The notes beneath the pieces are model-generated. The model did not search any database. It was given only the letters and a program-made list of their open reading frames with translations, and was not told where the DNA came from. Below are positions 1 to 19,482 of a stretch of 64,000 nucleotides of DNA, one piece after another. Numbering within the stretch: position 1 is the first letter of the stretch; the number at the start of each line of letters is the position of its first letter. This DNA is from Caldilineaceae bacterium (GTDB lineage: Bacteria > Chloroflexota > Anaerolineae > Caldilineales > Caldilineaceae): the NCBI GenBank assembly GCA_965200685.1, contig OZ241379.1, forward strand, positions 2,082,594-2,146,593, read 5' to 3'. The translations under genes were made by a program, and so were the position numbers.

Positions 1-1747
1 AGAGGTTCAAGGTCTGCAGCGTGGTAGAAAGATTGCCCAGTTGAGAAGGGATGCTGCCCGACAGTTGGTTGGTGGAGAGGTTCAAGGTCTGCAGCGTGGT
101 GGAAAGATTGCCCAGTGCAGAAGGGATGCTGCCTGTCAGGGTGTTGATGGAGAGGTTCAATTGTGTCAGATTGGAGAGGCTGCCCAGTTGAGTCGGGATC
201 TCGCCCGAGAGGGTGTTGGAGTAGAGGTTCAATTGTGTCAGATTGGAGAGGTCGCCCAGTGCAGGCGGGATGTTGCCCGACAGGGTGTTGGAGTAGAGGT
301 TCAATTCTGTCAAATTGGAGAGGTCGCCCAGTTGAGTTGGGATAGGGCCTGTCAGTTGGTTGTTGTGAAGGTACAACTGCTGCAGATTGCCGAGGTCCTC
401 GTCCAGTCGAGTTGGGATAGAGCCCGTCAGTTGGTTGTCGTTGAGGTACAACCGCTGCAAATTGACGAGGCTGTCTAGGTTAGCCGGGATGGGGCCCGAC
501 AGTTGGTTGTCGTTGAGGTACAAGTATCGCAGCTGGGTGAGTCTGCCCAGTGCAGCCGGGATGGGGCCCGACAGTTGGTTGTTGTAAAGGACCAACTGCT
601 GCAGATTGGAGATGTCGCCCAGTTGAGTTGGGATGGGGCCAGTCAGTTGGTTGTTGTGAAGGTACAAGGCCCGCAGCTGGGAGCCGATGGTACCCGTGCC
701 CAGTTGAGTTGGGATGGTGCCCGTCAGGTGGTTGTTATGAAGGTACAAGGTCAACAAGGGGAGATTGCCCAGTTCAGAGGGGATGGGGCCCGACAGTTGG
801 TTGTTGTAAAGGCGCAAGTGCCGCAGACGGAGGCGGCCCAGTTGCGGCGGGATGGCACCAGTCAATTGGTTGTTGTAAAGGTACAAGCGCAGCAGATACC
901 TTGTGTCTTGCGGGTTGGCCCTTCTCAGGTTTTCCAGTTGAGTTGGGATGCTGCCCGTCAGTTGGTTGTTGTGAAGGTACAAGCGCGCCAGATTGGAGAG
1001 GTTGCCCAGTTCGGGCGGGATGACACCAGTCAGTCGGTTGTTGTGAAGGTACAAGTTCCCAAGAGTGTTGGAGATGAGACCCGTGCCCAGTTGAGTTGGG
1101 ATGCTGCCCGTCAGTAGGTTGTTGTTGAGGTGCAACGCCTGAGTAGCGGAGAGGTTGCCCAGTTGCGGCGGGATGGCACCAGTCAGTTGGTTTTGGTCGA
1201 GCCGAAATTCAATCGTCTTGGAGAGGTTGCTGAGTGCAGGCGGGATGTTGCCCGTCAGTGTGTTGGAGTAGAGGTGCAAGTGTGTCAGATTGGAGAGGTT
1301 GCCCAGTTGAGTTGGGATGCTGCCCGTCAGTCGGTTGTCGTAGAGGTTCAAGTAGGTCAGAGTGGTGATGTTGCCCAGTTGTGGCGGGATGCTGCCCGTC
1401 AGTCGGTTGTTGCTGAGGTTTAACTGGGTCACCCTACCATCGGCGGAGAGAGTGAGGCCGCGCCACTGGTTTATCCTCGTTGTTGTAATCCAATCCCCTG
1501 TGGCAAATGTGGCAGTCCCTAGCAGGGTGTCCTTAGCGGCCAGGAGCGCGTTGCAAGCCGGGATTGCGTTGCTATAGCTATAGCCTGTACCCACAATCGC
1601 GGGGGTTCCGGGACATACATCCGCTACCGATATAGACTGCGCGGCTACGGGTGGGCCGGCGATGGTCATCAAGGCGGTTAAGGCGATGGCGGCACAGAGT
1701 ACGCTGAGAGCTGCCAGGAGGGTCCGGGCTGAGAGGCATGGTTTCAT
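1..1747 (-). CDS. Secreted leucine-rich repeat protein with plant-specific-type LRRs. This is the 5' part only; the gene runs off the window start.
   Basis: It is absent from the ORF track because it is truncated. Manual translation of the minus strand from the ATG at 1747..1745 gives MKPCLSARTLLAALSVLCAAIALTALMTIAGPPVAAQ, a signal peptide. A Cys-containing cap follows (ACNALLAAKDTLLG...INQWRGLTLS), then uninterrupted LxxLxLxxNxLTGxIPxxLGNLSxL units with no stop codon down to position 1. The start and upstream leader are paralogous to those of 27329..32233. Confidence 0.85.
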   Translation of the reverse strand, partial: MKPCLSARTLLAALSVLCAAIALTALMTIAGPPVAAQSISVADVCPGTPAIVGTGYSYSNAIPACNALLAAKDTLLGTATFATGDWITTTRINQWRGLTLSADGRVTQLNLSNNRLTGSIPPQLGNITTLTYLNLYDNRLTGSIPTQLGNLSNLTHLHLYSNTLTGNIPPALSNLSKTIEFRLDQNQLTGAIPPQLGNLSATQALHLNNNLLTGSIPTQLGTGLISNTLGNLYLHNNRLTGVIPPELGNLSNLARLYLHNNQLTGSIPTQLENLRRANPQDTRYLLRLYLYNNQLTGAIPPQLGRLRLRHLRLYNNQLSGPIPSELGNLPLLTLYLHNNHLTGTIPTQLGTGTIGSQLRALYLHNNQLTGPIPTQLGDISNLQQLVLYNNQLSGPIPAALGRLTQLRYLYLNDNQLSGPIPANLDSLVNLQRLYLNDNQLTGSIPTRLDEDLGNLQQLYLHNNQLTGPIPTQLGDLSNLTELNLYSNTLSGNIPPALGDLSNLTQLNLYSNTLSGEIPTQLGSLSNLTQLNLSINTLTGSIPSALGNLSTTLQTLNLSTNQLSGSIPSQLGNLSTTLQTLNL

Positions 1748-2145: not shown

Positions 2146-3120
2146 TTGCGAAAACAATTTTACGGTGGGCAGGCTGTCATTGAAGGCGTGATGATGCGGG
2201 GCCGTAAGGTCATGGCAATTGCTGTACGCAACACCCAGGGCAAGATCGTCGTCCACCAAGAACCGCTCACGGCCAAAATCTATACGAGTACATGGGGGCA
2301 ATGGCCCTTTGTGCGAGGGCTGGCTCTTTTGTGGGATGCGCTCGGGTTGGGTATGCAGGCACTTATGTGGAGCGCAAACGTATTAGAGGATGATGGCGAG
2401 GAGCAAGTCGAATTTTCCGCTTCTATGGCCTGGACGACAGTTGCCACCAGTCTTGCCTTTGCTGTGGCCCTCTTTTTTCTGCTGCCCACCTTTGCCAGCC
2501 GCTGGTTCGCCGGTTTCTTCGACCACAACCCCTACCTTGACGCGGTATTTGAGGGGGGCATGCGGCTGCTTCTATTCGTACTCTACCTATGGGGGATTGG
2601 TTTTCTGCCTGATATTCGCCGAGTGTTCGCCTACCATGGAGCCGAGCATAAAGCGGTGAATGCCTATGAGGCCGGCGATACACTGACCGTTGTCCATGTA
2701 CAAAAGCACAGTGTCCAACATACCCGTTGCGGCACAAGTTTCCTGCTCTACATTCTCGTACTCAGCATTTTGCTTTTCGCACCCCTCACATTTGCTTGGG
2801 TCGGACAGACTTGGCTGGCGTTGCTGCTGCGTTTCGTCACCCGGCTGTTGCTCGTTCCCGTGGTGGCCGCAATCGCCTACGAAATGATACGCTTCAGTGC
2901 CATTCATGAGAGCAACCGCTTGATGCGTCTTTTGATTGCCCCGGGCCTGTTGCTCCAGCGTATGACGACCCGTGAACCGGATGATGCGATGGTCGAATGC
3001 GCGCTAGCCGCGCTGCTCCCTGTCCTCGCCGCGGATGGAGTTGTCGTTGATGTGGGCTTGGCGGATATGGGCGAGGATGCAGCCACAACCATGCCAGCCC
3101 CGGCGATTTCCTCAGCCTAG
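2146..3120 (+). CDS. DUF1385 (YqhQ-like) family membrane protein
   Basis: 324-aa ORF. The [14 protein letters not shown] and [14 protein letters not shown] motifs plus several hydrophobic helices are the hallmarks I associate with DUF1385. The start is TTG at 2146, with GGAG about 9 nt upstream. Confidence 0.8.
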
Positions 3121-5783
3121 GAACCCCTGTACTGTCCCGGCAAGCCCTCCACAATCTCTACTGTCTCCACACTCACGGCGATGACCTTCTGCAGCAGGCC
3201 GATGATGTACTGATCATTTTCGCGGTTGGGATCATTGACGATACCGCTGCGTTTGTCTATCTTGACCCGGTACTGATCAAGGACCCATTCTAAGGCAGAC
3301 CGATTCCCTAGCCGATAGGCAAATGCTTTCTTTGGGATCCCCTCTAAGGTCAAGAAGTCGTTGTAGCGGATCGACTGTTTGTCCTTGGAGAGCCGCATCT
3401 TCTCCACCCGCCAAGTGGGGGCCTGGCCGGGCCTCTCTACCAGGGTGAGCGGATAGGCGGGCATCTGTTCATAGTTTACATGGATGTCTGCCAGACGTGC
3501 GCCGGCCTTGGCAAAGGCCCGGAAGTCGGACGACTGTGGGGTAAGGGGGATGTGTGGCAGGTCCCGCTTGAGGTTGGCTTGATACCGTTCACGATAGCCC
3601 GGGTGATGCAATAAGGCGTAAACGTAGTGGAAGATATCCCATTTGCTGATGGATTCATCCTGATACTGCCTGCGGAACTGTGCCAATGCCCAATCTGTAA
3701 TATTCTCGCGGCGGTTGCTGCCGTCTTCGTTGTAAGTGTAGAAGGGGAAACATTGGGAATTGCCAGTAAGATGCAGTTCTGGTATCTGCTGTGTCATCAG
3801 GCAGTGGAATGTTTTGTTGCTTCCGAGGCCTCTGACACAGACCGCCCGATTCTCTGTTTCCGCTGTAGGGAAGATGGACGGGAAGAGGTACACACTGTTG
3901 TTCATCAGCCGATCAAAATAAAGATACGACTTTGTAAATGGACGATAGAGGGATTGCCGAACTTTATCAATTGTAAAATACCCGGTCTTTTCCTTTTTAA
4001 GTGCCTGTTTCAAGTCGCCACTCCAACTAATTTTGCGATTATCAGAGATGACAAAATCATTTATATTCACATCATAGTTTTCCTGACGTTTCCAGCGGTC
4101 TACTTCCGCATTGTAGTGCCGAATCATGCGGTTCATGTTCTCAATGAGCACGTTGCGGTTGAAATTGTACGCCCATGCATCACGGCCCGTGACGACACCG
4201 CGACTATAACTCTTAAAGATTACATCTACCGCCTCGCCTTTCCCTGCTTTTGCTTCCTTTGTCCCCAAGGGGATAAAGGTCTCAAATTCAGCGTGGAGTC
4301 CTTCTGTGAGCCATGTATATCGCTTGTCCGGTCGTATCGCTTTCCATTCGATGTTGCGGTATTGTTCCTTTGCATCAAGATAGCCGTACTTCTCTTCCTT
4401 GCGCCACCACTCATCAACACGTGCGTAGAAGATTTCCGTTTGATCTGCCTTGTCGCGCCGCTTGACGCAAAAATTGATGCTCACACCCACTTGAATGCCA
4501 AAGACATTGTGTGTTGTCCCAGAGAGTTTTGGATTCTTACGCACGTTCCCAGCCAGATCCAGAATGTAGATGGCGTCGAAATCCTCTGCGAGGTGTTTCC
4601 GCATGCCATCGAACGCCACACCATCAAGAAAGCTGTTGTTGGTCACAAAGGCGACGATCCCTGCCTCGCCTATGCGGTCTGCTGCCCAGCGCATGGCCTT
4701 CACATAGGGATCATAGAGTGCGTTTTTATTGGTCGCGTTTGAGTCCTTTGCATAGGTCTCCCGAACCCGCTTGTCCATGGTGGCATAGGTGCGGTTCTTG
4801 TTGTTGTCATTCTCATTGACCTGCCCGATGTTGTAAGGCGGGTTGCCGATGATGACCGTAATATCCTGTTTCTTCTGATGCTCCACACGCTGTGTGTTCT
4901 CTTGGACAAACAAGCTGAGTTGGGTATCCTCGGCCAGCTCAAAGGTATCAACCAAGCAGATGCCCTCAAAGGGCGCGTACTGCCCCATCAGTTCATAGTA
5001 TTCATGCTCAATGTTCAGGGCCGCGATGTAGTAGGGCAGCAGCATCACTTCGTTGCAGTGTAGTTCCGTCTTGTACTTATGACGCAGGCTTGAGACTTTG
5101 CCCAGTTCCTGCAGGTGACGCATGACCCGCAGCATAAAATTGCCCGTACCCACGAAGGGGTCCAGCACATGTACGCCGGCATCGGCTAAAGAACGACCGA
5201 ACTCTTGGTTGAGGATAGCTTCCACGGAGCGCACCATAAACTCCACAATGGGCTGTGGTGTGTAGACGATGCCATGGGTGTCCGCGTCCTTGACGGAAAA
5301 GCCTTGGAAGAAGTTTTCGTAGACAGTGTTGAGGAAGCCCTGCTTCTCTGCATAGTCCCTGATAGTGGCTGCGGTCGTTTCAATGGCCGTGTAGAAACCC
5401 TCTAGGGGCAGGAAGAATTCATACCGGCTGAAATGCTGGCCGGTCAAGGCCTGCACCACCTCCTCGATCTCCCGTGCGATCACATTGCGGGCCACAAAGT
5501 CCGGGTTGTTGAACACCCGCCGGAAGATGCGTTCTGTCAGCAGGTGCTGGATCAGCATCTCCTCTACGGCTGCATCGGCGATGTTGGGGTTGATGGCATC
5601 TCGGCACAGAGTGGCGAAGCGGGCGAACGCCTGCCGAAAGGCCCGGTTGTGCTGCCGCTCCCCTTTGATTAAGGTCAGCAAAGACTCGGCCAGGGCCGGC
5701 ACTACCGTCTTGAACTCCTCCACTGACCAGTGCCAGCGCGCATAGGCCGGTGCCTGATAGGTATAGAAGTGGTTCGTAATCAA
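3117..5783 (-). CDS. N6-adenine DNA methyltransferase with a Type ISP-like C-terminal specificity domain. This is the N-terminally shorter tandem paralog and may be a silent or variant cassette.
   Basis: 888-aa ORF. SAM motif I is [11 protein letters not shown] and catalytic motif IV is IIGNPPYN, giving the gamma-class order. The C-terminal block ENITDWAL...[32 protein letters not shown]...ADIHVNYE resembles the LlaBIII/LlaGI-type (Type ISP) target-recognition tail. It starts at TTG exactly at the duplication breakpoint, with no convincing SD. Confidence 0.75.
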
Positions 5784-5885
5784 TCCTGGGCTGAGAAGCC
5801 GGTCTTTATCGTATCCGATTTTTCATAACTGGGCGCAGTTTGAGCCCGAGTTGGAGAGAAAAACGGGCATCTGGGTCGTTGTGGC

Positions 5886-8800
5886 TTATAGGCAGTGGGT
5901 AAACCGGCCCGGCAAGCCTTCCACAATCTCTACTGTCTCCACACTCACGGCGATGACCTTCTGCAGCAGGCCGATGATGTACTGATCATTTTCGCGGTTG
6001 GGATCATTGACGATGCCGCTGCGCTTGTCTACCTTGACCCGGTACTGATCAAGGACCCATTCCAACGCGGACCGGTTCCCCAGCCGATAGGCAAACGCTT
6101 TCTCTGGGATCCCCTCTAAGGTCAAGAAGTCGTTGTAGCGGATAGATTTTTTGTCCTTGGAGAGCCGCATCTTCTCCACCCGCCAAGTGGGGGCCTGGCC
6201 GGGCGTCTCTACCATGGTGAGCGGGTAGGCGGGCATCTGTTCATAGTTTACATGGATGTCTGCTAGACGCGCGCCGGCCTTGGCAAAGGCCCGGAAGTCC
6301 GCGGCTTTATCTGTTGCGCCTGCCATTGGGGGCGGCATGGGGATGTGTGGCAGGTCCCGCTTGAGGTTGGCCTGATATCGCTCTCTATATTGGGGATGAT
6401 GCAGCAGGCCGTAGACATAATGGAAGATATCCCATTTGCTGATGGATTCATCCTGATACTGCCTGCGGAACTGTGCCAATGCCCAATCTGTGATGTTCTC
6501 GCGGTGCTTGCTGCCGTCTTCGTTGTAGGTGTAGAAAGGGAAGCATTGGGTTTTTTCAAGTATGTCAACGCATGGAACCATAGAAGCCATCAAGGTCTGA
6601 AAAGGTTTGTTGCTTCCGAGGCCACTGACACAGATCGCCCGATTCTCTGTTTCCGCTGTAGGGAAGATGGAGGGGAAGACGTAGACTCTCTCGATCATCA
6701 TTCTATCAAAGTACAGGTGCGACTTTGTAAAGGGACGATAGAGAGAAGCCCTTACCTTTTCGTGTGAAAAATCAGCGATTTTCCCTCTTTTCAAATTTCG
6801 TTTCAGTGTTTCGCTCCACTTAATTTTCTGGTCATTATACACCACAAACTCATCAACATTCGCCCCCTGATCCCTCTGTCGTTCCCACTTGAATACCTGT
6901 TCATTATAGCAATCGATCATCCCCTGAATATTCTCTGTAAGCACACTTCGGTTAAAATTGTATGCCCATGCATCACGGCCCGTACTGATACCACAACTAT
7001 AACTCTTAAATAATACATCCCCCACCTCGCCCTTGGTCGCCTTTGCTTCTTTGCTCCCCATAGGGAGAAAGGTATCAAACTCGGCGTGGAATCCCTCTGT
7101 AAGCCAGGTATATCGCTTGTCCGGTCGTATCGCTTTCCATTCGATATTGCGGTACTGTTCCTTTGCATCAAGATAGCCGTACTTCTCTTCCTTGCGCCAC
7201 CACTCATCAACGCGTGCATAGAAGATTTCCGTTTGATCTGCCTTGTCGCGCCGCTTGACGCAAAAATTGATGCTCACACCCACTTGAATGCCAAAGACAT
7301 TGTGTGTTGTCCCAGAGAGTTTTGGATTCTTACGCACGTTCCCAGCCAGATCCAGAATGTAGATGGCGTCGAAATCCTCTGCGAGATGTTTCCGCATGCC
7401 ATCGAACGCCACAGCGTCAAGAAAGCTGTTGTTGGTCACAAAGGCGACAACCCCCTCATCCCCTATGCGGTCCGCTGCCCAGCGTATAGCCTTCACATAG
7501 GGGTCAGAGAGTGCGTTTTTATTGGTGGCCTTTGAGGCCTTTGCATAGGTCTCCCGTACCCGCTTGTCCATGGTGGCATAGGTACGGTTCTTGTTGTTGT
7601 CGTTCTCGTTGACCTGGCCTGCGTTGTAGGGTGGGTTGCCGATGATGACCGTAATATCCTGCTTCTTCTGGTTCTCCACGCGCTGTGTGTTCTCTTGGAC
7701 AAACAAGCTGAGTTGGCTGTCCTCGGCCAGCTCAAAGGTATCAACGAGACAGATGCCCTCAAAGGGCGCGTACTGGCCCATCAGTTCATAGTATTCATGC
7801 TCGATGTTCAGGGCCGCGATGTAGTATGGCAGCAACATCACCTCGTTGCAGTGTAGTTCCGTCTTGTACTTATGACGCAGGCTTGAGACTTTGCCCAGTT
7901 CCTGCAGGTGACGCATGACCCGCAGCATGAAATTGCCCGTACCCACGAAGGGGTCCAGCACATGTACGCCGGCATCGGCTAAAGAACGACTGAACTCTTG
8001 GTTGAGGATAGCTTCCACGGAGCGCACCATGAACTCCACAATGGGTTGTGGTGTGTAGACGATGCCATGGGTGTCCGCGACTTTGACGGAAAAGCCCTGG
8101 AAAAAGTTTTCGTAGACAGTGTTGAGGAAGCCCTGCTTCTCTGAAAAGTCCGTGATAGTCGCGGCTGTGGTTTCAATGGCCGTGTAGAAACCCTCTAGGG
8201 GCAGGAAGAATTCATAACGGCTGAAATGCTGGCCGGTCAAGGCCTGCACCACCTCCTCGATCTCCCGTGCGATCACATTGCGGGCCACAAAGTCCGGGTT
8301 GTTGAACACCCTGCGGAAGATGCGTTCGGTCAGCAGGTGTTGGATCAGCATCTCCTCTACGGCTGCATCAGCGATGTTGGGGTTGATGGCATCTCGGCAC
8401 AGAGTGGCGAAGCGGGCAAATGCCTCACGAAAGGCCCGGTTGTTCTGCCGCTCCCCTGCGATTAAAGTCAGCAAAGACTCGGCTAGGGCCGGCACAACCG
8501 TCTTGAACTCCTCCACTGCCTGTTGCCAGCGCGCATAGGCCGGTGCCTGATAGGTGAAGAAGGTCTGCAGGCCCTCAATCAGCAGTTCCGGCGCAGCGAT
8601 GGGGCTGTCCCACACCCGCTGCCCCTGTTGGATGACCACCATGCGCTGCGGGGCCTGGAAGAGGATATTGTCCTGGGGGTAGCCAGTAGCCAGCTTCTTG
8701 CGGATCTCTAGATCTAGGTCATCATCGCTATCTTTCGCTTCCCAATAGCCATGGGCCAGGTTGAAGTCGTCCAACAATGCGCCATCAATGCGAATGCTGC

Positions 8801-8987
8801 GGCCATCGGCCAGCTTGCGCGTGTACTGCTCGGTTAGGGTCCAGCCGAGGGGTTGCGCGCCTGCACGCAGGATATTGGCAAATGCCGGCGCGACCGCGCC
8901 CTCATGGGCAAAACCAAGCTCTGTCAGCTTGCTCAATTCGCTGAAATAGGCTGCGATGGCTTGTTGTGTGGCTTTGCGCTGGAGCAT
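5886..8987 (-). CDS. Type IIG/ISP-like fusion: PD-(D/E)xK-like N-terminal module, N6-adenine methyltransferase and specificity domain (no helicase)
   Basis: The track ORF is 5886..9107. I place the start at the ATG at 8987 (MLQRKATQQAIAAYF...). The 40 upstream codons are Cys/Trp-rich and overlap the preceding gene by 110 nt. The N-terminus has RIDGALLDDFNLAHGYWEAKD, a D..D-x9-E-x-K pattern. It is followed by [19 protein letters not shown] and the same C-terminal tail as the downstream paralog. Confidence 0.75.
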   Translation of the reverse strand: MLQRKATQQAIAAYFSELSKLTELGFAHEGAVAPAFANILRAGAQPLGWTLTEQYTRKLADGRSIRIDGALLDDFNLAHGYWEAKDSDDDLDLEIRKKLATGYPQDNILFQAPQRMVVIQQGQRVWDSPIAAPELLIEGLQTFFTYQAPAYARWQQAVEEFKTVVPALAESLLTLIAGERQNNRAFREAFARFATLCRDAINPNIADAAVEEMLIQHLLTERIFRRVFNNPDFVARNVIAREIEEVVQALTGQHFSRYEFFLPLEGFYTAIETTAATITDFSEKQGFLNTVYENFFQGFSVKVADTHGIVYTPQPIVEFMVRSVEAILNQEFSRSLADAGVHVLDPFVGTGNFMLRVMRHLQELGKVSSLRHKYKTELHCNEVMLLPYYIAALNIEHEYYELMGQYAPFEGICLVDTFELAEDSQLSLFVQENTQRVENQKKQDITVIIGNPPYNAGQVNENDNNKNRTYATMDKRVRETYAKASKATNKNALSDPYVKAIRWAADRIGDEGVVAFVTNNSFLDAVAFDGMRKHLAEDFDAIYILDLAGNVRKNPKLSGTTHNVFGIQVGVSINFCVKRRDKADQTEIFYARVDEWWRKEEKYGYLDAKEQYRNIEWKAIRPDKRYTWLTEGFHAEFDTFLPMGSKEAKATKGEVGDVLFKSYSCGISTGRDAWAYNFNRSVLTENIQGMIDCYNEQVFKWERQRDQGANVDEFVVYNDQKIKWSETLKRNLKRGKIADFSHEKVRASLYRPFTKSHLYFDRMMIERVYVFPSIFPTAETENRAICVSGLGSNKPFQTLMASMVPCVDILEKTQCFPFYTYNEDGSKHRENITDWALAQFRRQYQDESISKWDIFHYVYGLLHHPQYRERYQANLKRDLPHIPMPPPMAGATDKAADFRAFAKAGARLADIHVNYEQMPAYPLTMVETPGQAPTWRVEKMRLSKDKKSIRYNDFLTLEGIPEKAFAYRLGNRSALEWVLDQYRVKVDKRSGIVNDPNRENDQYIIGLLQKVIAVSVETVEIVEGLPGRFTHCL

Positions 8988-8997
8988 GGGTACAGTG

Positions 8998-11900
8998 CTA
9001 TTGTTGCGTTGGTTCTGTAGGCGCGGGCTCCATAAGCAGGAGCTGCGGGCGTAGGCTCGGATGCAGGCGCACCAATTCCGTTCGATATCGATAAATGCTT
9101 GCCACATCCTTCAGTTCAAAGCCGTGCATTGTCCGCACAAAGGTGATCTGAAATGGATCTCCTGACAATAAACGCGTGACCCGTAACCCCTGCAGAACGT
9201 CCTCTGTCAGGTCGCTATCGTGGTTGCCGGAAACTGCGGCAAATTCTACCGGCAGCCCGTGAGATGCCAGCCGGTCTGAGACATCGTGGTTGGCAGCAGG
9301 TTTGGCAGCAGTCCACACGTTTTCCAAATAGCGCAGCATGGTGGCTGCATGGGAGGGACCAGTCATGTCTACGTCAAAGGGCCGCGGTGGGGCCTGGGCA
9401 TCTGGTGCAGCAGCCCCGCCTCTGCTTTGTTCGGGCGCGGCCCGCGATGCTGCATCGACCTGGGGACCGTGTACATGCCGTGTTGGGGACGAGGCGTCCC
9501 GCCAGAGGAGATGTTCTAGATTGTATTCGTGGGCTAAGGTTCGCACGAGATCCGTACGCGCTTGATTGGCCTCGCTATCCTGTAGGCCGGTCACCGCCAT
9601 TTTCACACTTTCGCGGATGTAATTGAACAGGGTTTCGGCGAGGGGTGAGGCAGATCCTGTTTCGATGAATTCTGCTGGCGAACGCCGCGCATACGAGGCT
9701 GCATGTTCCCCGTTGAGCAGAGATGCTAATTGCCGGCGACGACGCAGAGATGTCCAGATTTCCCATAAACGCTCTTCCCCTTGCCGTCCTTCTAGGTCTT
9801 GGCGATTGCGTAGGATTGCTTGGCAGCGTGCCCACAATTTTGCTGTGAAATGGGGACGATACAGATGGGAGCCGGCCGTATGCGGCGGGAGTGTAGGTAT
9901 GCCCGTATCAACAGACCATTCACGCAGCTCCTCGCAGGTGTCCTCAAGGGCATGGGCCATGTGGCGTACCATCTGTTCTAGATGCCCATACGCCCGCACA
10001 AGTCCATGATGCACACGCTCCTGCACGTGGGCAGTCAGTTCAAGGCTGGCGAGCTCTACCCGTTCTTGTCGTAATGTCTGCGCGCGGCGTAGCCGCAGCC
10101 GATATGCTAGGATGGCACCTGACAACGCGCCGGCCATCAGCCCTAAAAATGTAGTTCCATTGACTTCCAGATCGAACGGTTGCCGGAACATGACAACATG
10201 GAGCCAGGCCAGCAGCGCAATGCCACCGAGCAGACAGAGAGCACGAACCAATGAAGCGGGCAGAGAGGGCTGGTCGGCAATGGCCCCTAGATAGCGGATA
10301 TGCCACTCTCGGACTTGCGGCTGGCGTTTCATCTCTGCCCCAGGGGGACTAACGGAAAGGTCTTTGAGTTCGGTCAGCCATTGCTGGAGCTGCTGCTGCG
10401 CCCGCAGAATCCCGCATGGCTGGGCACTGAGCAAGGTGAGCAGATAGTCTCGCATCTGACGAGAGGTGGCCGGCAGAAAGCGCTGGTCGCGCGGGTTGAG
10501 AGGCAGGCCATCCTCACCGAGAGCATCAAGCCCCCAGGCCTTGTCCAGTACAGTGGGCCCGATGCTCTCCTCAAGACGTGCCAACACTGTCTGAAATTGC
10601 TCGTCAAAGGCAGTCTGCCAGCCGATGGGGTCACGGCCGCGCAGTTTGAGGGCCATGGCCGCTGGCAGTATATATTCAGGATGGATGGCAAGTTGGTCCA
10701 GTGATTGAGGGGCCTTGTCCTCAAACAGATCCGGGAGCTGTGAGATGAGCTGGCCCAATACCTGTGGCGGCGTTGCCCCCAATTCCGCTAACCCCAGTGG
10801 CGAGTTACTTCCCCCCTCTTCACGCTCCACGGGTGTGAGGATCTGCTCCCGCAGCAGCCGCTTTTCTTCTTGCTCTTGCAGGGTCTGCAAGATATACGTT
10901 AGCGGCACATAATCTGTGGCTGCGCCCAGCAAGCTATAGGGGCGTTCCCTGGCGTTGCGGAGATCGATTCCAATCTGTTCATCGACAAAAGCGGCCCCAT
11001 CCGCAGCGATGAGGGCCTGTAGGCTGTTGCCAACCAGAACAGACAGTTCATAGCTGCTGTGGGCCAGCCCCTGGTTGCTTTTCTCCCGGTCCAGCAGATA
11101 GATGCGGTCAAACAGCCGGCGGCCCAGCCATGAACCCCAGGGTCCTGTGATCTGTGACCTGGGCCCAGGGGTGTCACTGGTTGTCCAGGGGTCATTGCCT
11201 ACTACAGGATCTTCCCCCAACAAGGGCAAAAATTCATTGAGATTTGCCCGGCGCAGGCCGGTAAGTGCCTCTAGTTCCGCGATGGCAGCATAGCAGGAGG
11301 CATCCTCAATGCGCCGGCTGTTGTCGGTGGCATAGCTCCCTGTGGCGAAGATGCCCACGACTTGCGAGATGTGACGCTGCCCCACATCATGGAGCTGATG
11401 TGCGACCATCGGCCAGATCAGCGCGGATGTCAACGGTTCATAGAGCGGTGCGACCACGTAAAGCGTCGTCTGTACGAAGGGGTCGGTGGGCGCATGGATG
11501 TCCGCGCGGATGGGGTTGATGATGTTGGAGGAGAAGGCCCTGGCAATCTCATCCCCGGCCCGCAGCGCGGCCCGAAAAGCAACCCGCCGGGTCATAGCGG
11601 TGGGCTGTGGCCTGTACTCTGTATTGGCTCCTGCCCATTCAGGATCCCTGGGTGTTTCGTTTTCCTGCCATGGCAGCGGCACTAGGACCTCGGCGGCTGC
11701 CTCGCGCAGCAGGTCTGCCCAACGCTGTGCTTGGCCAAACCCACTGGCCACGGGCCAATGGCCGCTTTTACTGGGCAATGATGTTGCGCTGCTCGTGCTT
11801 CGCAAGCGCTGTAGTAAGCCTTCTAGATAGAATGGCGGCAGGCGTCTGTCCTGCAGGGTGAGCAATTGGAGGGCCATCTGGCCATCGGGCCCGACCTGTT

Positions 11901-12078
11901 CTTCCGCCATAAGAGTGGCAAAGCGGGCAATGTGCGTCAGGTCCGGGCCATCTATGGCTGCGGCCATCCGTTGTTCTTGGGATTCCCGCAGCCGCGAGGC
12001 CAGGTGGAGCATTGTCTGCAAGCCCCAGCCTCCGAAACAGAGGATGGCGGCTCGGCTACGGGTAGCACCAGGAATCAT
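8998..12078 (-). CDS. Membrane-anchored paralog of the tubulin/FtsZ-like protein, with degenerate GTP-binding motifs
   Basis: 1026-aa ORF whose start overlaps the upstream stop (ATGA). It aligns by eye to the 839-aa neighbour at three points. (1) AILCFGGWGLQTMLHLA matches TLIVGVGGMGSNTVRAV. (2) TLYVVAPLYEPLTSALIWPMVAHQL matches LVYVVSSLCGGTGAGMFMDVAHRV. (3) QVVGIFATG...CYAAIAELEAL matches RVVGIFYLP...AYAALKELNYF. Two hydrophobic helices lie mid-protein (LVRALCLLGGIALLAWLHVVMF and FLGLMAGALSGAILAY). Confidence 0.6.
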   Translation of the reverse strand: MIPGATRSRAAILCFGGWGLQTMLHLASRLRESQEQRMAAAIDGPDLTHIARFATLMAEEQVGPDGQMALQLLTLQDRRLPPFYLEGLLQRLRSTSSATSLPSKSGHWPVASGFGQAQRWADLLREAAAEVLVPLPWQENETPRDPEWAGANTEYRPQPTAMTRRVAFRAALRAGDEIARAFSSNIINPIRADIHAPTDPFVQTTLYVVAPLYEPLTSALIWPMVAHQLHDVGQRHISQVVGIFATGSYATDNSRRIEDASCYAAIAELEALTGLRRANLNEFLPLLGEDPVVGNDPWTTSDTPGPRSQITGPWGSWLGRRLFDRIYLLDREKSNQGLAHSSYELSVLVGNSLQALIAADGAAFVDEQIGIDLRNARERPYSLLGAATDYVPLTYILQTLQEQEEKRLLREQILTPVEREEGGSNSPLGLAELGATPPQVLGQLISQLPDLFEDKAPQSLDQLAIHPEYILPAAMALKLRGRDPIGWQTAFDEQFQTVLARLEESIGPTVLDKAWGLDALGEDGLPLNPRDQRFLPATSRQMRDYLLTLLSAQPCGILRAQQQLQQWLTELKDLSVSPPGAEMKRQPQVREWHIRYLGAIADQPSLPASLVRALCLLGGIALLAWLHVVMFRQPFDLEVNGTTFLGLMAGALSGAILAYRLRLRRAQTLRQERVELASLELTAHVQERVHHGLVRAYGHLEQMVRHMAHALEDTCEELREWSVDTGIPTLPPHTAGSHLYRPHFTAKLWARCQAILRNRQDLEGRQGEERLWEIWTSLRRRRQLASLLNGEHAASYARRSPAEFIETGSASPLAETLFNYIRESVKMAVTGLQDSEANQARTDLVRTLAHEYNLEHLLWRDASSPTRHVHGPQVDAASRAAPEQSRGGAAAPDAQAPPRPFDVDMTGPSHAATMLRYLENVWTAAKPAANHDVSDRLASHGLPVEFAAVSGNHDSDLTEDVLQGLRVTRLLSGDPFQITFVRTMHGFELKDVASIYRYRTELVRLHPSLRPQLLLMEPAPTEPTQQ

Positions 12079-14594
12079 GGCACATTACCACCGGGGTGTA
12101 CAACATCCCAGGGATTGTACTCCCTGTTGAGGAACTGCTGGTTGCTGGGATGACGGGAATCTTCTTCGGTGATTTCGGGCAGATCGACCCAAGCGGGATT
12201 GAGATGAAATTCCTCCCGCACGGGGAAATCTTGGCTGTTTTCATACTGTTCCTGAAATTCATCTAGGCGGTCGATGAGGGTCACGGGCAGGCCATGGACA
12301 ATCCAGACAGCATCCATCCGCCCTGTGTCGCCGGTCGGCACCCATTTCAAGTCCTCTTGGCCGATCATGGCCAGGGCCAACTCTGCATCGTCTTCCCGGG
12401 CGGAGGGCGTGGCTGCCAGACGGATGTGTTCTAGGTCTGCATCATGAAAGCTGAAGCGGTCCGCGTCCCAGCGAATGTAAGGGTTCAGCCGGTCCAACCA
12501 TTGCTGCACCCGGTTGTTGGGGAGCGGGCGGGCCTGCTGCACCTCCTCCCCATATTGCACGCCGATGATGTGGCGGATGTCTATCTGTTGCTTTACTCTG
12601 CCCAACAGGCCCTGATCTTCGCTGAGTGTCTTCGTCAGCATGGTGAACAGATTTTCAGCATTGATTGCATTGCTGTAGTACAGAATCGTATCAATGAGCG
12701 TTCCGAGCAGAGCGTGCCAATCGCTGGGATAAACAGACTGGGCTGCGTTGTGATAGAAATGTTGTAGGTAATCCCGCCCGACTACACCGGTTTCTAGTTC
12801 GTAGTAGGTACTGGTGCTGGGCGTGCCATCGGGGATGCGGGGGTCGATGCGGTCTGCAGCTTGGCTGGTCTCCTGATTGGCGCGTAGCAGCGCGGCACCA
12901 GCATTGTTGATCTGCATGCGGAAGACGTCTCGCATCTGTGCGCCGTACACCGAGAGCCGTTCTACCAGTATTCGTTCCAGCATATCCCGGCGTTGGTTGA
13001 GTCGGGCGCGAGCCTTGCGGTTCCGTAGATCCAGAGCCCGGTCCCGGGCCTGACGAGGACTGAGGGCCGAGAGCAGGAGATCGCCGAAGCCACTGGCTAT
13101 CTGGCCGATTCGTTCGATATGTCCTCCTTCCTGGGCCAACAATGTGCGCCAGCGGGCCCGGTCCTCCTCTGCTACTGGTTGGTTGTTCAGCAGCAAAAGG
13201 CGTTGTTTGGGCAGGGATTCTAGAGGGGCGGTGGCAGGGTTCAACGGCCCTAGCAGATCTGTCAAGGCCAGAGCTCCTCGCAAGCCGAGTTCGAGAACTG
13301 CCTGACGGAAGGCAGTGTCCACGATTTCCTTAAAGCCTGTGTATGCGCTGCGGCTTTCCGCGATCTCGTCGGCTAATTCCTCTAGCCGGTCACTGTCTAG
13401 GGAAAGATAGCGGGCCCGCAATTCCAGCAAAAGCCCCTGCCAGATCGTGGTAGCCTTCTGGCGGTCTGTGTTGCTGATGGGCTGATGGGGGTCATTGAGA
13501 GAGGGGCCGGCCGCAAGGCGTCGTAGGCAATCCCCCAAAAAGGCCTGCTGCCAGAAATTCACCAGTGCTTCGTCCGGCGTGACAATGGCAGAGGTGGCAA
13601 AGCTACTGTAGACTAGGTAGTTCTTTTGCCGGCGTTCGCCTATCACCTCTGCGGCCGCGATGGCTCCGGACATGCGTTCCCTGACGATGTTCACCTCTAG
13701 GCCGAGGATTTCGCTGCTCAGGTGGCTGATGGCTGTCAGTTGGATGAGATGGGCAGCCAGTTTCTCTGCATCAGCTTTGCGGGCTAGGCTGCGGCCGTCT
13801 CGGTTGGTGCGCCCGACTAAGAAGATAAAATCAAAGGGGGCATAGGGGGTGTCGGGCAGGGCCCGCTGTTCGCTTGGGTACAGTTCATGGAACTGTTGCG
13901 TTTCTTGAAAGTAATTCAACTCCTTGAGGGCTGCATAGGCATTGGCCTTAATACGCCGTCGTTGGAGATCACTATGTATCTCCTCCTCCAGCACATCCGG
14001 CAGGTAGAAGATACCGACAACCCGGGCATTGCTACGCACGAGGGCGCGCACCCTGTGCGCCACATCCATAAACATCCCCGCGCCTGTGCCACCGCACAAG
14101 CTGCTCACCACATACACAAGCTGGTAGTTGCTCATCACCGGAAAGCCCCGGTTCTGGGCCATCTCCAGGTCCCGAATCTTATCTAAGGAGGCATACTTCG
14201 TCTCCAACAGGCGCTTGAATGTTACATAATTACGGAAAAAGGAGAGCCGGCCGATGGGCCGTAACTGTTTGGCCCCGTTGTGAATGTACCCCAAAGGAAT
14301 GGAGGGATAGTTCCACCAACGAGCGATCTCCGGATGGTTGTCTAGGTTGGAGACCAAGCGTGTGGCGTCAAATTTGCCCATGTAGGCGATTTCATCAGCA
14401 TGGAGAGGCTCTTGGTCGAGTCGGTTGACCAAAGGCTCTGTGTCGAGGGCCAGCAATTGGATCATGGCGGGCAAGGATTCTCGGCCCCATACATTACGTA
14501 GCCGGCGTTTGACCGCGCGCACTGTGTTGCTTCCCATGCCGCCCACGCCCACAATTAGCGTCGGATAGATAGTTGGCTTATCGCCGAGCTGCAT
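12075..14594 (-). CDS. Tubulin/FtsZ superfamily GTPase-like protein (Tubulin_2 / FtsZl1-like)
   Basis: 839-aa ORF. The N-terminal GVGGMGSN resembles the FtsZ T1 loop GVGGGGxN. NGAKQLRPIGRLSFF is present. SSLCGGTGAGMFMD matches the tubulin/FtsZ signature [SAG]GGTG[SAT]G. There are no predicted TM helices. Confidence 0.75.
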   Translation of the reverse strand: MQLGDKPTIYPTLIVGVGGMGSNTVRAVKRRLRNVWGRESLPAMIQLLALDTEPLVNRLDQEPLHADEIAYMGKFDATRLVSNLDNHPEIARWWNYPSIPLGYIHNGAKQLRPIGRLSFFRNYVTFKRLLETKYASLDKIRDLEMAQNRGFPVMSNYQLVYVVSSLCGGTGAGMFMDVAHRVRALVRSNARVVGIFYLPDVLEEEIHSDLQRRRIKANAYAALKELNYFQETQQFHELYPSEQRALPDTPYAPFDFIFLVGRTNRDGRSLARKADAEKLAAHLIQLTAISHLSSEILGLEVNIVRERMSGAIAAAEVIGERRQKNYLVYSSFATSAIVTPDEALVNFWQQAFLGDCLRRLAAGPSLNDPHQPISNTDRQKATTIWQGLLLELRARYLSLDSDRLEELADEIAESRSAYTGFKEIVDTAFRQAVLELGLRGALALTDLLGPLNPATAPLESLPKQRLLLLNNQPVAEEDRARWRTLLAQEGGHIERIGQIASGFGDLLLSALSPRQARDRALDLRNRKARARLNQRRDMLERILVERLSVYGAQMRDVFRMQINNAGAALLRANQETSQAADRIDPRIPDGTPSTSTYYELETGVVGRDYLQHFYHNAAQSVYPSDWHALLGTLIDTILYYSNAINAENLFTMLTKTLSEDQGLLGRVKQQIDIRHIIGVQYGEEVQQARPLPNNRVQQWLDRLNPYIRWDADRFSFHDADLEHIRLAATPSAREDDAELALAMIGQEDLKWVPTGDTGRMDAVWIVHGLPVTLIDRLDEFQEQYENSQDFPVREEFHLNPAWVDLPEITEEDSRHPSNQQFLNREYNPWDVVHPGGNVP

Positions 14595-14674
14595 AAGTTG
14601 ATTCCCTAACTGTAGTGGAGAGTGGTTGGTGGTGAGCCCTTGGAACCATGCGATCCTTCACTTTCCACAGGTGT

Positions 14675-17600
14675 TCACCAGTCGGATGCCCAGGGATTGC
14701 CAGACCCTGAGCGGTATTTGTTCCAGTCGCTGTTGGCCTGCTCTGCATCATGCGCTCCGTCAGTCGCTGTTGATTCCGCTCCCCACATGCCAGTGTCCTG
14801 TGGCCAGGGTGCTGTAGCCTGTGGGTTTGTATTGGTCTCGGGCCATGGAGCATTGTCTGTGGCAGTTTCACTGGCCCGGTGCTCCTCGGCCGCGGGGGTT
14901 GGTTCCTCGTCTATGTTATAGCCACGGCCACGGGTCCGGGCGATGATGACCAACAGCAGCAGAAAGAACAGGGGGCCGGAGCAAAATACCAGTGGAAATG
15001 TGTAAAACGGACGTAGCCACCACTCGACATAGCGTTGGTAGAAGGTTGGGCTGCGGAAGCTGGCATCCACGGAACGGGTTTCATGGGGCAGGCCCGCTAT
15101 GCCCAACACCAGATCTCCGCTATAAAATGAGCCATACAGGGGATCTTTGGGTATGGCCTTGCGGGCGACTAGGGTGATGGGAACCTCATAATAGCCGTCG
15201 GCGTCGGGCGTCCCGCTGATCTCAATCGCTGCTGCTTCCAAAAAAGATTCGTCCAGTGTCTGGGGCCCTTCGTCCGTTTCCCCTGCGGCAGTGAGTCCTA
15301 ACACTTGTACCACAAAAGGCGTCTTGCCATCGAATCGTAGTAGGAGTGATGCTGTGGCTTGTTCGCCTGCCAGCCCCAGATCACCGAAATGCAGGGATCC
15401 TGCGATGCGCCATTCAAGCCCGCGAATTTGCAGCCGGTAGGGAAGGGTATTGGGCAGAACGTCGAAATCTTCGCTCGGGCCGAGCAGGCGCAGAACACCA
15501 CTACAGCCGCCGGATAGCACAGGTACTTGGCTCTGCAAGCGAAGCGGAAGGAGCCCCGCTCTGGTAGGGGTAGTTTCACTGGGGCTCCCTTGGAACTGTA
15601 CATCAGCGGCTGTCACGGTCAGGCCGTCGCAGGTACTTTCGTTCACTTCCACCGTGAGCCGGAAGGGAGTGCCCTCCACAAAATCGACTGGTAGCAGAAT
15701 CGTCTCATCGAGTCGGAAATTGGGGGAAGTATCAAACAGTAGTTCGCCAAAGTCTGCTTCCTGCACTGCAATGTGGGCTGCGGCGCGGGAAACAGTAAAC
15801 ATCACAGGCAAGGAGGGCGCAGGGCGGATCAGAACATCCATGGGCAAACCGGCTGGACTGAGGACGGACAAGCGTAGGTCGCCCTCGTATGCACCAGGGC
15901 GCAGAAGATCGAGACCGTCCATCTGCAGGGTCGCGGTTTGGCTGCCTACTGCTGGCACATCAACCGCAAACTGTAAGTCAACATCACTGACAACTTCGCC
16001 GCTATCCGTCCGTCGTAAGGCCAGGGAGCCTACTAGGCTGCCGATATCGTATTTCGCGGAAGTACCAGCCTGAACCGTCACTGTCCAGCCTGTGGCTGGC
16101 ATTTTCAGCAGATCGAGCGTAGGCGGTAGGCCGCGCACATAGACTGCTGGCTCAACATCTAATAGGGCCCGTGCGAAACTGCCGAAGTGGAACCCCTGAT
16201 CATTGGCCATTGCGGTGAGCAAAAACAACACCTCATAGCTATGCCCATCTTGGGGCACAAACCCGTTGTCCGTGCAGATGCGTTCCCGGCAGGAGAGGGC
16301 CTTCTGGTATACTGGCTGCCGGCCGCTGTTGTCATCAAAGGGGGCAACGATCCCCGAAAGCTGAGAGGTTGCACTGTCCGCCTCGGTAATGTCCATCACG
16401 AATGCGGTTGCTTGCAACCCCTGTATGGGTAGGCCGGGCCCAAACCCCACCCTGAGTTGCAGGCTGCCATCGCCGAGTATGCCGGGATCGTTCACTGATG
16501 GCGAGTGAACCTGTACATTCGGCAGATCTGTGCGGGCGACTAGCCGGAAGGAGCGGCGCAACTGCAAGGCGTTTTCGTCATCCCCCAATTGTACCATGAC
16601 TTCTTCGGGGCTGCTGGTAAGCTGCACCGCGCCAATCGCATCTCGTCCCAACCCATCCTGGCCGAGGAGGGGGATGCGTGTTGTGCCATTGAGCAACAGC
16701 GGCTCGGCAGCAGCGGGCCCAGCCCCTCGTACTACTAGAAGAGGTGTCTGGCCGGCTGGGTAGAAACGCATGGAGGCAGGGCTGCCCTGAATACTGGGCG
16801 GCGGGAAGAGGAGCTCGGGGAAGCTGTCCGCCTGCACGACAGCAAAGCTGCTCAGGTCCGATGTTTCCGCGGTCCATTCTCCGGCCGGCAGAGGGCTGCC
16901 CGCCACCAGCAGATCGACATTGTCATCCGCGAGAACGCTCACAGTCCGCATGGGGGCCGCGTCCCGCCGAACACTGCTGATGGCTGCTTGAGGAGCGATG
17001 AAAGCCAATTCACCCACCCCATGTTCCTCGCGAATGGAAACGGCTAGATTGCCATAGACATTGCGTTGGCTGACGACCGAGCGGTCTGATTTCATTTCCG
17101 CGAAAACTTCGCTGAAAATCCGCAGAATATCCGGCGCACTTTTGGCCTCTTGGACTCGGGCTAACTGATTTTTGAGGAAATCGCCTGGGCAGCCGGCGTT
17201 CGGATTGCAGAGGAGTACCGGATAGATCTGCACGTCCGCGGCCTGCATCTGTGCAAGCTGTTCGCTGACCGTCTCGCGCTGGTTATAGATAGCATCGGGG
17301 GCGGTCGGCTCGCCATCGGTGAGCAGCAGCACATATTGGCTACGGTTCGGCTGCCGGCCGGCCGTGAGCAGACGCAGAGCCTCTTGTAGGCCCAAGTCCA
17401 TACGTGTATAGCCTCTGGTGCCATAATTTAGCGGCGGCTGTAGGGAAGCTGCTAAGCGACGGCGGTTCTCGCGGCTGCCGACTTCTTGTAGACGCCCCAA
17501 GGAGCCGACCCCCTCAGCGCCGCTGTCAAAGCGCAAGACAGCGATGCGGTCGTCTGGATCTGCCAGCGCAATCAGCAAACGGGCAGCACTATAGCGCAGC

Positions 17601-17848
17601 TCGTTCGGGTCGCTCGGTGGATTATAGCTATTGCCGCCACAGGGCGGGCCATAGGGAGGCCCATCCTGTGGCCAAGGCCAGCAGGTAGCCATACTGCCGG
17701 AGTCGTCAAGCATCACAACGACATCAATTTTCAGTGCTCTTTCTGTTTGCGCGTGTAGGGGCGCAACAAATTCTGCTGCCCACAAGGCGACACACCCCAA
17801 CAGTAGCCAGATGAACACGACTCGAAGCCGTTGAACGACGATTCTCAT
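14675..17848 (-). CDS. Large vWA-domain ectoprotein with an N-terminal signal/anchor and a C-terminal TM helix plus a cytoplasmic Trp-rich acidic tail
   Basis: The track ORF starts at the TTG at 17872. I prefer the ATG at 17848 (MRIVVQRLRVVFIWLLLGCVALWAAEF). The MIDAS motif is VVVMLDDSGSM (DxSxS), followed by LLLTDGEPT. A beta-rich ectodomain of about 800 aa follows, then the TM segment PLVFCSGPLFFLLLLVIIARTRGRG and an 87-aa tail. Confidence 0.8.
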   Translation of the reverse strand: MRIVVQRLRVVFIWLLLGCVALWAAEFVAPLHAQTERALKIDVVVMLDDSGSMATCWPWPQDGPPYGPPCGGNSYNPPSDPNELRYSAARLLIALADPDDRIAVLRFDSGAEGVGSLGRLQEVGSRENRRRLAASLQPPLNYGTRGYTRMDLGLQEALRLLTAGRQPNRSQYVLLLTDGEPTAPDAIYNQRETVSEQLAQMQAADVQIYPVLLCNPNAGCPGDFLKNQLARVQEAKSAPDILRIFSEVFAEMKSDRSVVSQRNVYGNLAVSIREEHGVGELAFIAPQAAISSVRRDAAPMRTVSVLADDNVDLLVAGSPLPAGEWTAETSDLSSFAVVQADSFPELLFPPPSIQGSPASMRFYPAGQTPLLVVRGAGPAAAEPLLLNGTTRIPLLGQDGLGRDAIGAVQLTSSPEEVMVQLGDDENALQLRRSFRLVARTDLPNVQVHSPSVNDPGILGDGSLQLRVGFGPGLPIQGLQATAFVMDITEADSATSQLSGIVAPFDDNSGRQPVYQKALSCRERICTDNGFVPQDGHSYEVLFLLTAMANDQGFHFGSFARALLDVEPAVYVRGLPPTLDLLKMPATGWTVTVQAGTSAKYDIGSLVGSLALRRTDSGEVVSDVDLQFAVDVPAVGSQTATLQMDGLDLLRPGAYEGDLRLSVLSPAGLPMDVLIRPAPSLPVMFTVSRAAAHIAVQEADFGELLFDTSPNFRLDETILLPVDFVEGTPFRLTVEVNESTCDGLTVTAADVQFQGSPSETTPTRAGLLPLRLQSQVPVLSGGCSGVLRLLGPSEDFDVLPNTLPYRLQIRGLEWRIAGSLHFGDLGLAGEQATASLLLRFDGKTPFVVQVLGLTAAGETDEGPQTLDESFLEAAAIEISGTPDADGYYEVPITLVARKAIPKDPLYGSFYSGDLVLGIAGLPHETRSVDASFRSPTFYQRYVEWWLRPFYTFPLVFCSGPLFFLLLLVIIARTRGRGYNIDEEPTPAAEEHRASETATDNAPWPETNTNPQATAPWPQDTGMWGAESTATDGAHDAEQANSDWNKYRSGSGNPWASDW

Positions 17849-17890
17849 AGCAAAATCATTGCCTAGGATCAATCAAGCATGCCCGCAAAG

Positions 17891-17899
17891 ATTGTAACA
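17891..17899 (-). promoter_or_regulatory. Possible extended -10 element (TGTTACAAT) upstream of the vWA gene
   Basis: The minus strand reads TGTTACAAT about 40 nt upstream of the ATG at 17848, in the 47-71 nt gap after the DsbA-like gene. This is a sequence match only. Confidence 0.25.
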
Positions 17900-17919
17900 C
17901 AAACTGCAGTGGAGGGCAG

Positions 17920-19371: not shown

Positions 19372-19482
19372 GTAAAGGCTCCTCATGGGACGAATCCAAT
19401 GGAAAGTGCGACCGGTGATTGGCCGCATTCAATTCGCTTCACTCCCTGTATTGTAACCGTGAGAGCAACAGACCGCAATTTA

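Follow-up and report, generated by a model that had tools for sequence, protein, structure and literature searches.

We analysed a 64,000-nt stretch of the genome of a Caldilineaceae bacterium (contig OZ241379.1, positions 2,082,594 to 2,146,593; hereafter the window), in which two similar genes, A and B, follow one another on the minus strand. A and B are very probably members of a multi-copy, DrdV-like family of Type IIL restriction-modification genes in which homologous exchange homogenises the scaffold while the variable modules reassort. According to this reading, A is a deletion derivative of a full-length family member, and B is a chimera of two paralogs that carries in addition one variable module (V1) derived from A. 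The two genes and the spacer between them are as follows.

3117..5783, minus strand: gene A, a 5'-truncated paralog; its longest open reading frame (ORF) has 888 amino acids (aa) from TTG 5783.
5784..5885, minus strand: B-A intergenic spacer, with no terminator-like site between the genes.
5886..8987, minus strand: gene B, full-length, 1033 aa from ATG 8987, which comes after the stop codon of the upstream gene.

The longer ORF listed for B (5886..9107) overlaps the gene upstream of it. Over 5823..5888 the A and B ORFs share a reading frame with two intervening stops, TAA 5888-5886 and TGA 5825-5823; the shared frame is probably a coincidence.

Both proteins matched the Pfam families ISP_coupler, N6_Mtase, Eco57I and Type_ISP_C, and PADLOC Type IIG models matched them end to end. 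No Pfam match to a helicase domain was found in A or B, and NCBIfam gave no useful name for either. The best solved relative of B was DrdV (PDB 7LO5/7LVV, 1029 aa), with an E value of 1.9e-208 over B residues 25-1027. DrdV consists of a nuclease, a helical connector, a methyltransferase (MTase; 295-635) and a target recognition domain (TRD; 636-1029) (bioRxiv 10.1101/2021.01.06.425610). Its methylation is confined to one strand of CATGNAC, its cuts lie 10/8 nt away, and it cleaves only on assembly of several DNA-bound molecules, the DNA held by one subunit being cut by the nuclease domains of others (bioRxiv 10.1101/2021.01.06.425610). With limits taken from the DrdV paper, the approximate domains of B are the following.

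8553-8987, minus strand: B nuclease domain, aa 1-145.
8103-8552, minus strand: B helical connector, aa 146-295.
7083-8102, minus strand: B gamma-class N6-adenine MTase, aa 296-635.
5889-7082, minus strand: B TRD, aa 636-1033.

B has the single-chain architecture of DrdV (nuclease motif, connector, NPPY MTase and TRD) and aligns with it from end to end (1033 versus 1029 aa). Residues 25-145 align to the DrdV nuclease domain with the PD-(D/E)XK motif kept (D68...E83-A-K85); the MTase motifs FxGxG and NPPY are likewise kept, as is an LEKTQC loop with the DrdV contacts D803/K807. Gene A encodes a connector, an MTase and a TRD, with Pfam matches from residue 22; its nuclease domain is deleted and its MTase motifs are intact (DPFVGTGNF at aa 208, NPPY at aa 314). 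Both genes thus show the Type IIL order of connector, gamma-class N6-adenine MTase and C-terminal TRD, preceded by an N-terminal nuclease in B and not in A, with no ATPase or helicase and no obligatory partner gene. No recurrent neighbour or partner gene was found across 80 family loci. The superfamily 2 (SF2) helicase-like ATPase that lies between nuclease and coupler in Type ISP enzymes is absent, and alignments with LlaGI and LlaBIII, two enzymes of Type ISP, begin at their coupler (chain residues 562 and 726; E 1e-154 to 1e-160). The original prediction, made from the letters of the window, had described A and B as methyltransferases; the Pfam and DrdV matches point instead to DrdV-like Type IIL restriction-modification genes, each encoding a single polypeptide without a helicase. 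By analogy with DrdV, an enzyme of this family would methylate one strand of an asymmetric site and cut at a fixed distance when several site-bound molecules assemble.

A and B are direct repeats with a spacing of 2772-2793 nt. In global alignments, the core (4290-5750 in A versus 7084-8544 in B) was 94% identical (1376/1462 columns) and the middle (3781-4289 versus 6575-7083) was 71% identical, compared with 47% for shuffled sequence. The 3' part (3130-3780 versus 5903-6574) was 87% identical with indels counted and 91% without, and is interrupted by a small patch of divergence that includes a 21-nt indel (A ~3515-3554, B ~6290-6347). A 60-nt sliding comparison likewise revealed a mosaic rather than uniform divergence. 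The conserved/variable/conserved pattern that had been described by eye was thereby confirmed, with its core of ~1.5 kb above 90% identity and its middle of ~0.5 kb divergent at nucleotide and protein level; the estimate of 'well above 90%' for the 3' 0.65 kb, which is indeed conserved, was slightly too high. The first ~142 codons of B have no counterpart in A, and the repeat stops just short of the stop codons, leaving different C-terminal tails (GQYRGS versus GRFTHCL).

Codon analysis revealed a synonymous divergence (dS) of 0.0-0.4 and a ratio of non-synonymous to synonymous divergence (dN/dS) of ~0.1 in the A/B flanks, where most differences are synonymous. In the middle block, dS ranged from 0.6 to >1.4 (saturated) and dN/dS from 0.15 to 0.5. 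Since dS is saturated in the middle and low in the flanks, the mosaic reflects differing segment histories, not merely faster protein evolution, and the middle block is much older than the flanks. Direct repeats with this pattern would fit a local tandem duplication after which the TRD of one copy came under diversifying selection. However, dS is saturated in the variable block but 0.1-0.4 in the flanks, the dN/dS of the block does not exceed 1, ~120 nt of unrelated spacer separates the repeat units, and the body of B is orthologous to a gene at a different locus (L084, described below). The segment-wise dS and the B/L084 orthology refute this explanation, which we regard as almost certainly wrong.

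To place the variable segments on a DNA-bound structure, the contact positions of DrdV were transferred to A, B and other family members through the DrdV alignment. DrdV contacts bases with N448, Q485, K486, K488, N548, R554 and D564 of its MTase domain and with N673, R721, Y764, D803 and K807 of its TRD, and K567 occupies the gap left by the flipped adenine (bioRxiv 10.1101/2021.01.06.425610). Nine of the 12 contact positions vary in the family (n=20 members). Two variable modules were delimited: V1 (aa 541-630), which includes the loop with the DrdV contacts N548/R554/D564/K567 and occurs in the family with three loop types, one of them DrdV-like, and V2 (aa 655-815), which can be divided further. 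The family also varies in the C-terminal tails and in a small patch at aa 880-900. In A and B, the modules lie as follows.

7113..7359, minus strand: V1 module in B, aa 544-626; the DNA-reading loop of the MTase domain and the following strands, with the N548, R554 and K567 equivalents.
6528..7020, minus strand: V2 module of B, aa 657-821; TRD core and jaw, the block differing from A.
4320..4566, minus strand: V1 module of A and donor of the B tract, at an offset to B of 2793 nt.
3735..4227, minus strand: V2 module of A; TRD core and jaw, stable across strains (97-100% nt identity in four assemblies).

A and B differ at three of the five TRD base-contact positions of DrdV, the equivalents of R721/D803/K807 being E726/D808/K812 in B versus G/H/N in A. 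The A/B divergent block probably corresponds to the base-reading part of the TRD, the 'core + jaw' in Type ISP terms, and the conserved 3' 0.65 kb would also belong to the TRD, as conserved core helices and the non-base-reading 'guide' subdomain (PMC4872093). The original equation of the divergent segment with the TRD is therefore right in that the block holds the R721/D803/K807 equivalents, but too narrow in leaving out the conserved 3' part.

A protein search with B returned thousands of homologs, among them at least ten protein clusters (73-100% identity) on the 4,361,640-bp contig that carries the A and B proteins. Because these clusters share this contig with the window's own two proteins, at least ten paralogs appear to share the window's genome. 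In the family protein alignment, the closest partner of A or B shifts segment by segment along the gene. Among five non-allelic genes with nucleotide sequence, the synonymous difference was 0.07-0.30 in the scaffold versus 0.44-0.69 in V1/V2. This pattern is the signature of concerted scaffold evolution around old modules. The connector (aa 198-277) is the most uniform part of the family, with a non-synonymous difference of 0.00 and a synonymous difference of 0.07-0.11. A-type V1+V2abc was also found in protein P0015 of a sister genome and B-type V2abc in P0008. The same module thus occurs at non-orthologous loci between conserved flanks, with segment-wise incongruence, which is the pattern of TRD or domain movement. 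A protein search with the V2 block of A returned short TRD fragments only, and A itself was not among the matches.

The family is common in assemblies of Caldilineaceae, Poribacteria and Latescibacteria and is present there in many copies per genome. Judging from record names, some of them those of sponge-metagenome bins, these assemblies appear to be sponge-associated. The patchwork of A and B was also seen in Poribacteria OY282383.1, in a tandem array of four full-length DrdV-like genes (L044 3127..16543), and two more lie in L027 (10001..16436); in these copies, tracts of 100% identity abut tracts of 50-65%, and copies c and d are the same over the first ~300 codons. Most cluster representatives were ~1000-aa Type IIL-like or ~1600-aa Type ISP-like proteins. 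Seven of 150 distant representatives had 830-943 aa and began near the connector, so forms without a nuclease do occur but are infrequent, and some of them could be truncated gene calls. In the best 120 homologs, the only truncated copies were A's own orthologs. Short C-terminal family fragments (50-77 aa) were observed at L009 17292..17525, L024 15342..15570 and L053 14647..14787, each lying 1.6-4 kb downstream of a same-strand full-length copy. Many short TRD-only ORFs are also present in the protein database, some inside Mb-size contigs (P0135, P0154, P0175, P0194).

The history of B could be followed in related assemblies. In ERZ25070167 (L084), an operon encoding DsbA, VWA, tubulin-like and 1026-aa proteins is followed by the paralog P0002, on a contig other than that of the A locus. 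B was 97-100% identical to P0002 at the nucleotide level upstream, in the first 60 codons and throughout V2, where nearly all of the 150 informative sites were of the L084/P0002 type and not of the A type. In its last ~60 nt and the spacer after it, B corresponds to the gene that other strains have upstream of A. P0016, on the 4,361,640-bp contig, is the mirror image, joining the body of that other gene (0.90-1.00 aa identity, aa 1-900) to the tail of P0002, and appears to be the reciprocal product of B's crossover in the same genome as B. These mirror-image chimeras suggest that a reciprocal crossover within aa ~830-1010 exchanged the downstream contexts of the two genes. The un-exchanged arrangement was found in two of three genomes, and the window's arrangement is therefore derived. 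The P0016/B pair would imply an inversion or translocation mediated by two dispersed paralogs.

Within this L084-like body, B nt 1629-1875 (7359-7113, 247 nt) was A-type, not L084/P0002-type, at 146 informative sites in a row, with 100% identity to A against 43-65% to L084/P0002. A-type V1 is present in all four A orthologs (94-100% nt identity in L081A, L082A and L083g2), and the backbone V1 type is common to L084 and P0009, which indicates transfer from A to B. This suggests that the ~250-nt V1 of B was acquired from A by gene conversion, a replacement expected to change B's specificity beside the methylated adenine. B has another, weaker A-like tract at 7698..8049 (aa 314-431), where 14 consecutive informative sites are A-type and not L084-type; either a further conversion or a change on the L084 side could account for it. 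Three strains have three different TRDs in the gene at B's position; none of them comes from A, and the V2 of this gene is A-type in no strain.

Repeats of ~3 kb with 85-100% identity are hard to assemble, and collapsed or mis-joined paralogs could mimic such a history. However, the full-length gene, the truncated gene and the DUF1385 gene beside them were found with the same deletion junction in three independent assemblies, the contig is 4.36 Mb, and the stretch shared at B's crossover is only ~300 nt. Furthermore, A-type V1 in B replaces sequence of 43-65% identity, which mis-mapped reads cannot create. Assembly error is thus impossible for the V1 tract, unlikely for the tandem arrangement and remotely conceivable for the crossover, and as a general explanation we consider it highly improbable.

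The A locus is common to three related assemblies (L081, L082 and L083), where it adjoins a convergent DUF1385 gene. This single-copy gene is 98.9-99.4% identical to that of the window, and the compared strains would be about 99% identical. L083 (4.30-Mb contig) has a full-length second gene (P0003, 1025 aa) with a TRD 99-100% identical to that of A at the nucleotide level. A is best taken as the ortholog of this full-length gene, from which it is separated by one deletion.

5763/5762, minus strand: junction of the 430-nt deletion, CACTTCTAT/ACCTATCAGG, from the alignment with the intact L083 gene.

The deletion took the G of the ATG through codon 143, and its junction is identical in the window, L081 and L082. 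A is accordingly a nuclease-deleted derivative of an ordinary family member, with its original ATG gone. A metagenome scan with the sequence just upstream of the junction gave no match. The ~120-nt spacer upstream of A is the same in four assemblies apart from one base. The unique TRD of A differs by only 0-3% between orthologs versus up to 14% per window of alignment in the A scaffold, which points to paralogs that keep overwriting this scaffold by conversion.

Gene A has two in-frame start candidates, TTG 5783 and GTG 5726 (the gene callers used GTG, giving 868/869 aa); neither has a ribosome-binding site, AGGA directly abutting the TTG with no spacing. Intact family genes likewise lack a Shine-Dalgarno sequence. 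The A ORF (868-888 codons) is intact in the three assemblies with the truncated gene, where it has neither a frameshift nor a stop and shows a single in-frame length difference of 3 nt. It is possible, at somewhat longer odds than even, that A is translated and active. It could then be a stand-alone methyltransferase (R-minus, M-plus) with a second, strain-stable m6A motif, so that two specificities are kept side by side, a proposal to which we give the same modest chance. The intact ORF with its FxGxG and NPPY motifs, the removal of the nuclease almost exactly at the domain boundary, the available TTG and GTG in a family that does without Shine-Dalgarno sequences, the failure to find a terminator between B and A, and the distant relatives that start near the connector would all fit this proposal. 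On the other hand, the original ATG was destroyed and the AGGA is unspaced, the ratio of non-synonymous to synonymous polymorphism (pN/pS) in A's unique TRD is ~0.5 or higher (on <10 changes), and the intact ORF is explicable by the short time since the deletion, the strains being ~99% identical, and by repair from intact paralogs. On balance, we lean towards A being a little-translated or untranslated remnant that still recombines.

Type IIL enzymes methylate one strand only, and A has a different TRD and no nuclease domain; it might in principle methylate the complementary strand of B's asymmetric site, like the separate methyltransferase of the Eco57I system. However, the TRD of A is 97-100% identical in four strains in which V1/V2 of the upstream gene differ by 19-59%, and in one strain the ortholog of A is a full restriction-modification enzyme. 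Since the TRD of A does not co-vary with the upstream gene, this proposal was rejected, and there is hardly any chance that it holds.

A programmed donor-cassette switch would make A a selected silent cassette and B its expression site, with high-frequency TRD replacement in a clonal population. A, which lacks a start codon and an N-terminal domain, does come immediately downstream of an intact copy, three assemblies retain the truncated arrangement, and one A-to-B transfer is documented: A is thus an incomplete donor whose sequence is found in the recipient, in the V1 tract 7359-7113 of B. In contrast, A stems from a single deletion of 430 nt, accidental in appearance, and a sister strain has the gene at full length, which argues indirectly against a donor maintained for switching. 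B's V2 is not A-type in any strain, three TRDs occupy the B position in three strains, and truncated copies are rare, being limited in the best 120 homologs to A's own orthologs. The features of a phase-variable switch (inverted repeats with a recombinase, or a simple-sequence tract) were not found at these direct repeats: positions 1-14000 of the window contain no inverted repeats, the neighbours of A and B include no recombinase gene, as had been predicted, and a repeat scan of 3000-9300 revealed no simple-sequence tract and just two trivial two-copy repeats. Both the switch as a whole and the role of A as a selected silent cassette are very unlikely.

Collectively, these results favour the recombining multi-copy family, and its history can be outlined. 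Recurrent homologous exchange would keep the paralog scaffolds similar, and this homology would let V1 and V2 reassort among paralogs. The strain comparison shows that a single 430-nt deletion stripped the ATG and the nuclease domain from a full-length A, that a reciprocal crossover joined the body of the paralog beside the DsbA-VWA-tubulin-like operon to the 3' tail of A's former neighbour, giving B, and that after this crossover B received ~250 nt of V1 from A. Restriction and methylation specificities would turn over at the strain level through RecA-type recombination, with A serving at least as a module reservoir. The comparison of strains supports homologous recombination that may change specificity between strains, with A as the donor once; programmed switching is not supported. 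The suggestion that exchange between near-identical flanks swaps specificity thus holds at the strain level, where the 247-nt A-to-B tract attests it and where comparison with related strains made recombination visible, but not as a dedicated switch, the pair being part of a family of at least ten paralogs rather than a two-gene system. The donor-cassette arrangement offered with it was not borne out, since A is a deletion derivative and the TRD of B arrived together with its gene body, that of a paralog at another locus.

Several points weigh against this account. The other paralogs of the window's genome were compared as proteins only, not as loci, and they were placed in this genome by the shared 4,361,640-bp contig, not by their loci. 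Enzyme activity, specificity and present-day switching are all read from sequence. The reciprocal chimeras B and P0016 could in principle be an assembly mis-join at a repeat. The unique TRD of A shows 0-3.5 synonymous and 3-6.5 non-synonymous differences between orthologs, too few to show selection. Finally, in the DrdV alignment, read by eye, the dimer-interface residues of DrdV are not conserved in the A/B family, and its oligomeric mechanism may differ in detail from that of DrdV.

The closest precedents are the movement of TRDs in Helicobacter pylori and the LlaGI/LlaBIII mosaic. In H. pylori, recognition-domain sequences move between loci by homologous recombination in the flanking conserved coding sequence (PMC3467074, PMC3077401, PMC3983042), with segment-wise phylogenetic incongruence and strain-specific specificities (Furuta & Kobayashi, PMC3467074). 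Those genes are of the Type III mod, Type I hsdS and Type IIG kinds, in a pathogen with natural competence, whereas here the genes form a Type IIL family of Caldilineaceae; the MTase loop and the TRD reassort as two separate modules, a reciprocal crossover can be seen, and the donor is a copy that has lost its nuclease. LlaGI and LlaBIII are a natural mosaic pair with >95% identical first domains and a divergent TRD (PMC3553950, PMC4872093). They have a homologous coupler, MTase and TRD and the same V1/V2/conserved-3' pattern as A and B. In contrast to these plasmid alleles, A and B are chromosomal paralogs in one genome, and they have no SF2 helicase-like ATPase, which excludes a translocation-collision mechanism. 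Mosaic restriction-modification genes with mobile TRDs are also known from the MmeI family. In phase-variable Type I hsdS shufflons and silent-cassette systems such as pilE/pilS, a complete copy has an incomplete one beside it and receives sequence from it. A and B resemble these systems in that the incomplete A lies beside the complete B and has passed sequence to it; they differ in that no inverted repeats or site-specific recombinase were found and in that A is a recent deletion derivative. DrdV itself has been described as a single gene, unlike the 10+ recombining, putative restriction-modification paralogs per genome here, of which one copy lacks a nuclease.

Since DrdV cuts in trans and the connector is extremely uniform, paralogs could conceivably form mixed assemblies, in which any combination of 10+ sites on incoming DNA could license cleavage; this is speculative, and we consider it rather improbable. 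If it held, a nuclease-less A would present targets and methylate, with restriction supplied in trans by paralogs, or alternatively the product of A would restrain B. Selection on the homogenised scaffold would then favour cross-compatibility in addition to recombination.

The A/B family is a clear new case of a known route to varied anti-virus specificity in bacteria. Its new elements are a DrdV-like Type IIL family with 10+ paralogs per genome across several phyla, a two-module reassortment that matches the contact map, and resolved events. A literature search of incomplete coverage found no paper describing such a recombining DrdV-like family. Among strains ~99% identical, the locus is a well-resolved record of a domain deletion, a reciprocal crossover and a gene conversion whose tract borders are exact, and both DNA-reading elements of the DrdV and Type ISP structures behave in it as exchangeable modules. 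Such natural chimeras could guide the engineering of new specificities, and genomes with many family copies lend themselves well to matching methylome motifs with combinations of modules. As dispersed 3-kb repeats, the copies also mediate rearrangement of the chromosome.

Upstream of B lies a conserved gene block.

8998..19428, minus strand: four-gene block encoding a DsbA/thioredoxin protein (502 aa), a VWA protein (1065 aa), a Tubulin_2/PF13809 protein (839 aa) and a 1026-aa protein.

The last two genes of this block overlap by 4 nt, and the block is conserved in ERZ25070167 (L084 1..9990). The 1026-aa protein had no Pfam, PADLOC or NCBIfam match. We considered the DsbA-VWA-tubulin-like operon as part of the restriction-modification system and rejected it, its four proteins being absent from 80 other family loci and having no PADLOC match; it is merely the native neighbour of B's backbone. 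Eukaryote-like repeat proteins of the leucine-rich-repeat (LRR) kind have been reported in sponge symbionts. The window contains LRR genes at 1..1577 (19 copies of a 72-nt unit) and at 27329..32233 on the minus strand (a 1634-aa LRR protein), and these are 66-77% identical between strains, compared to 99% for the DUF1385 gene.

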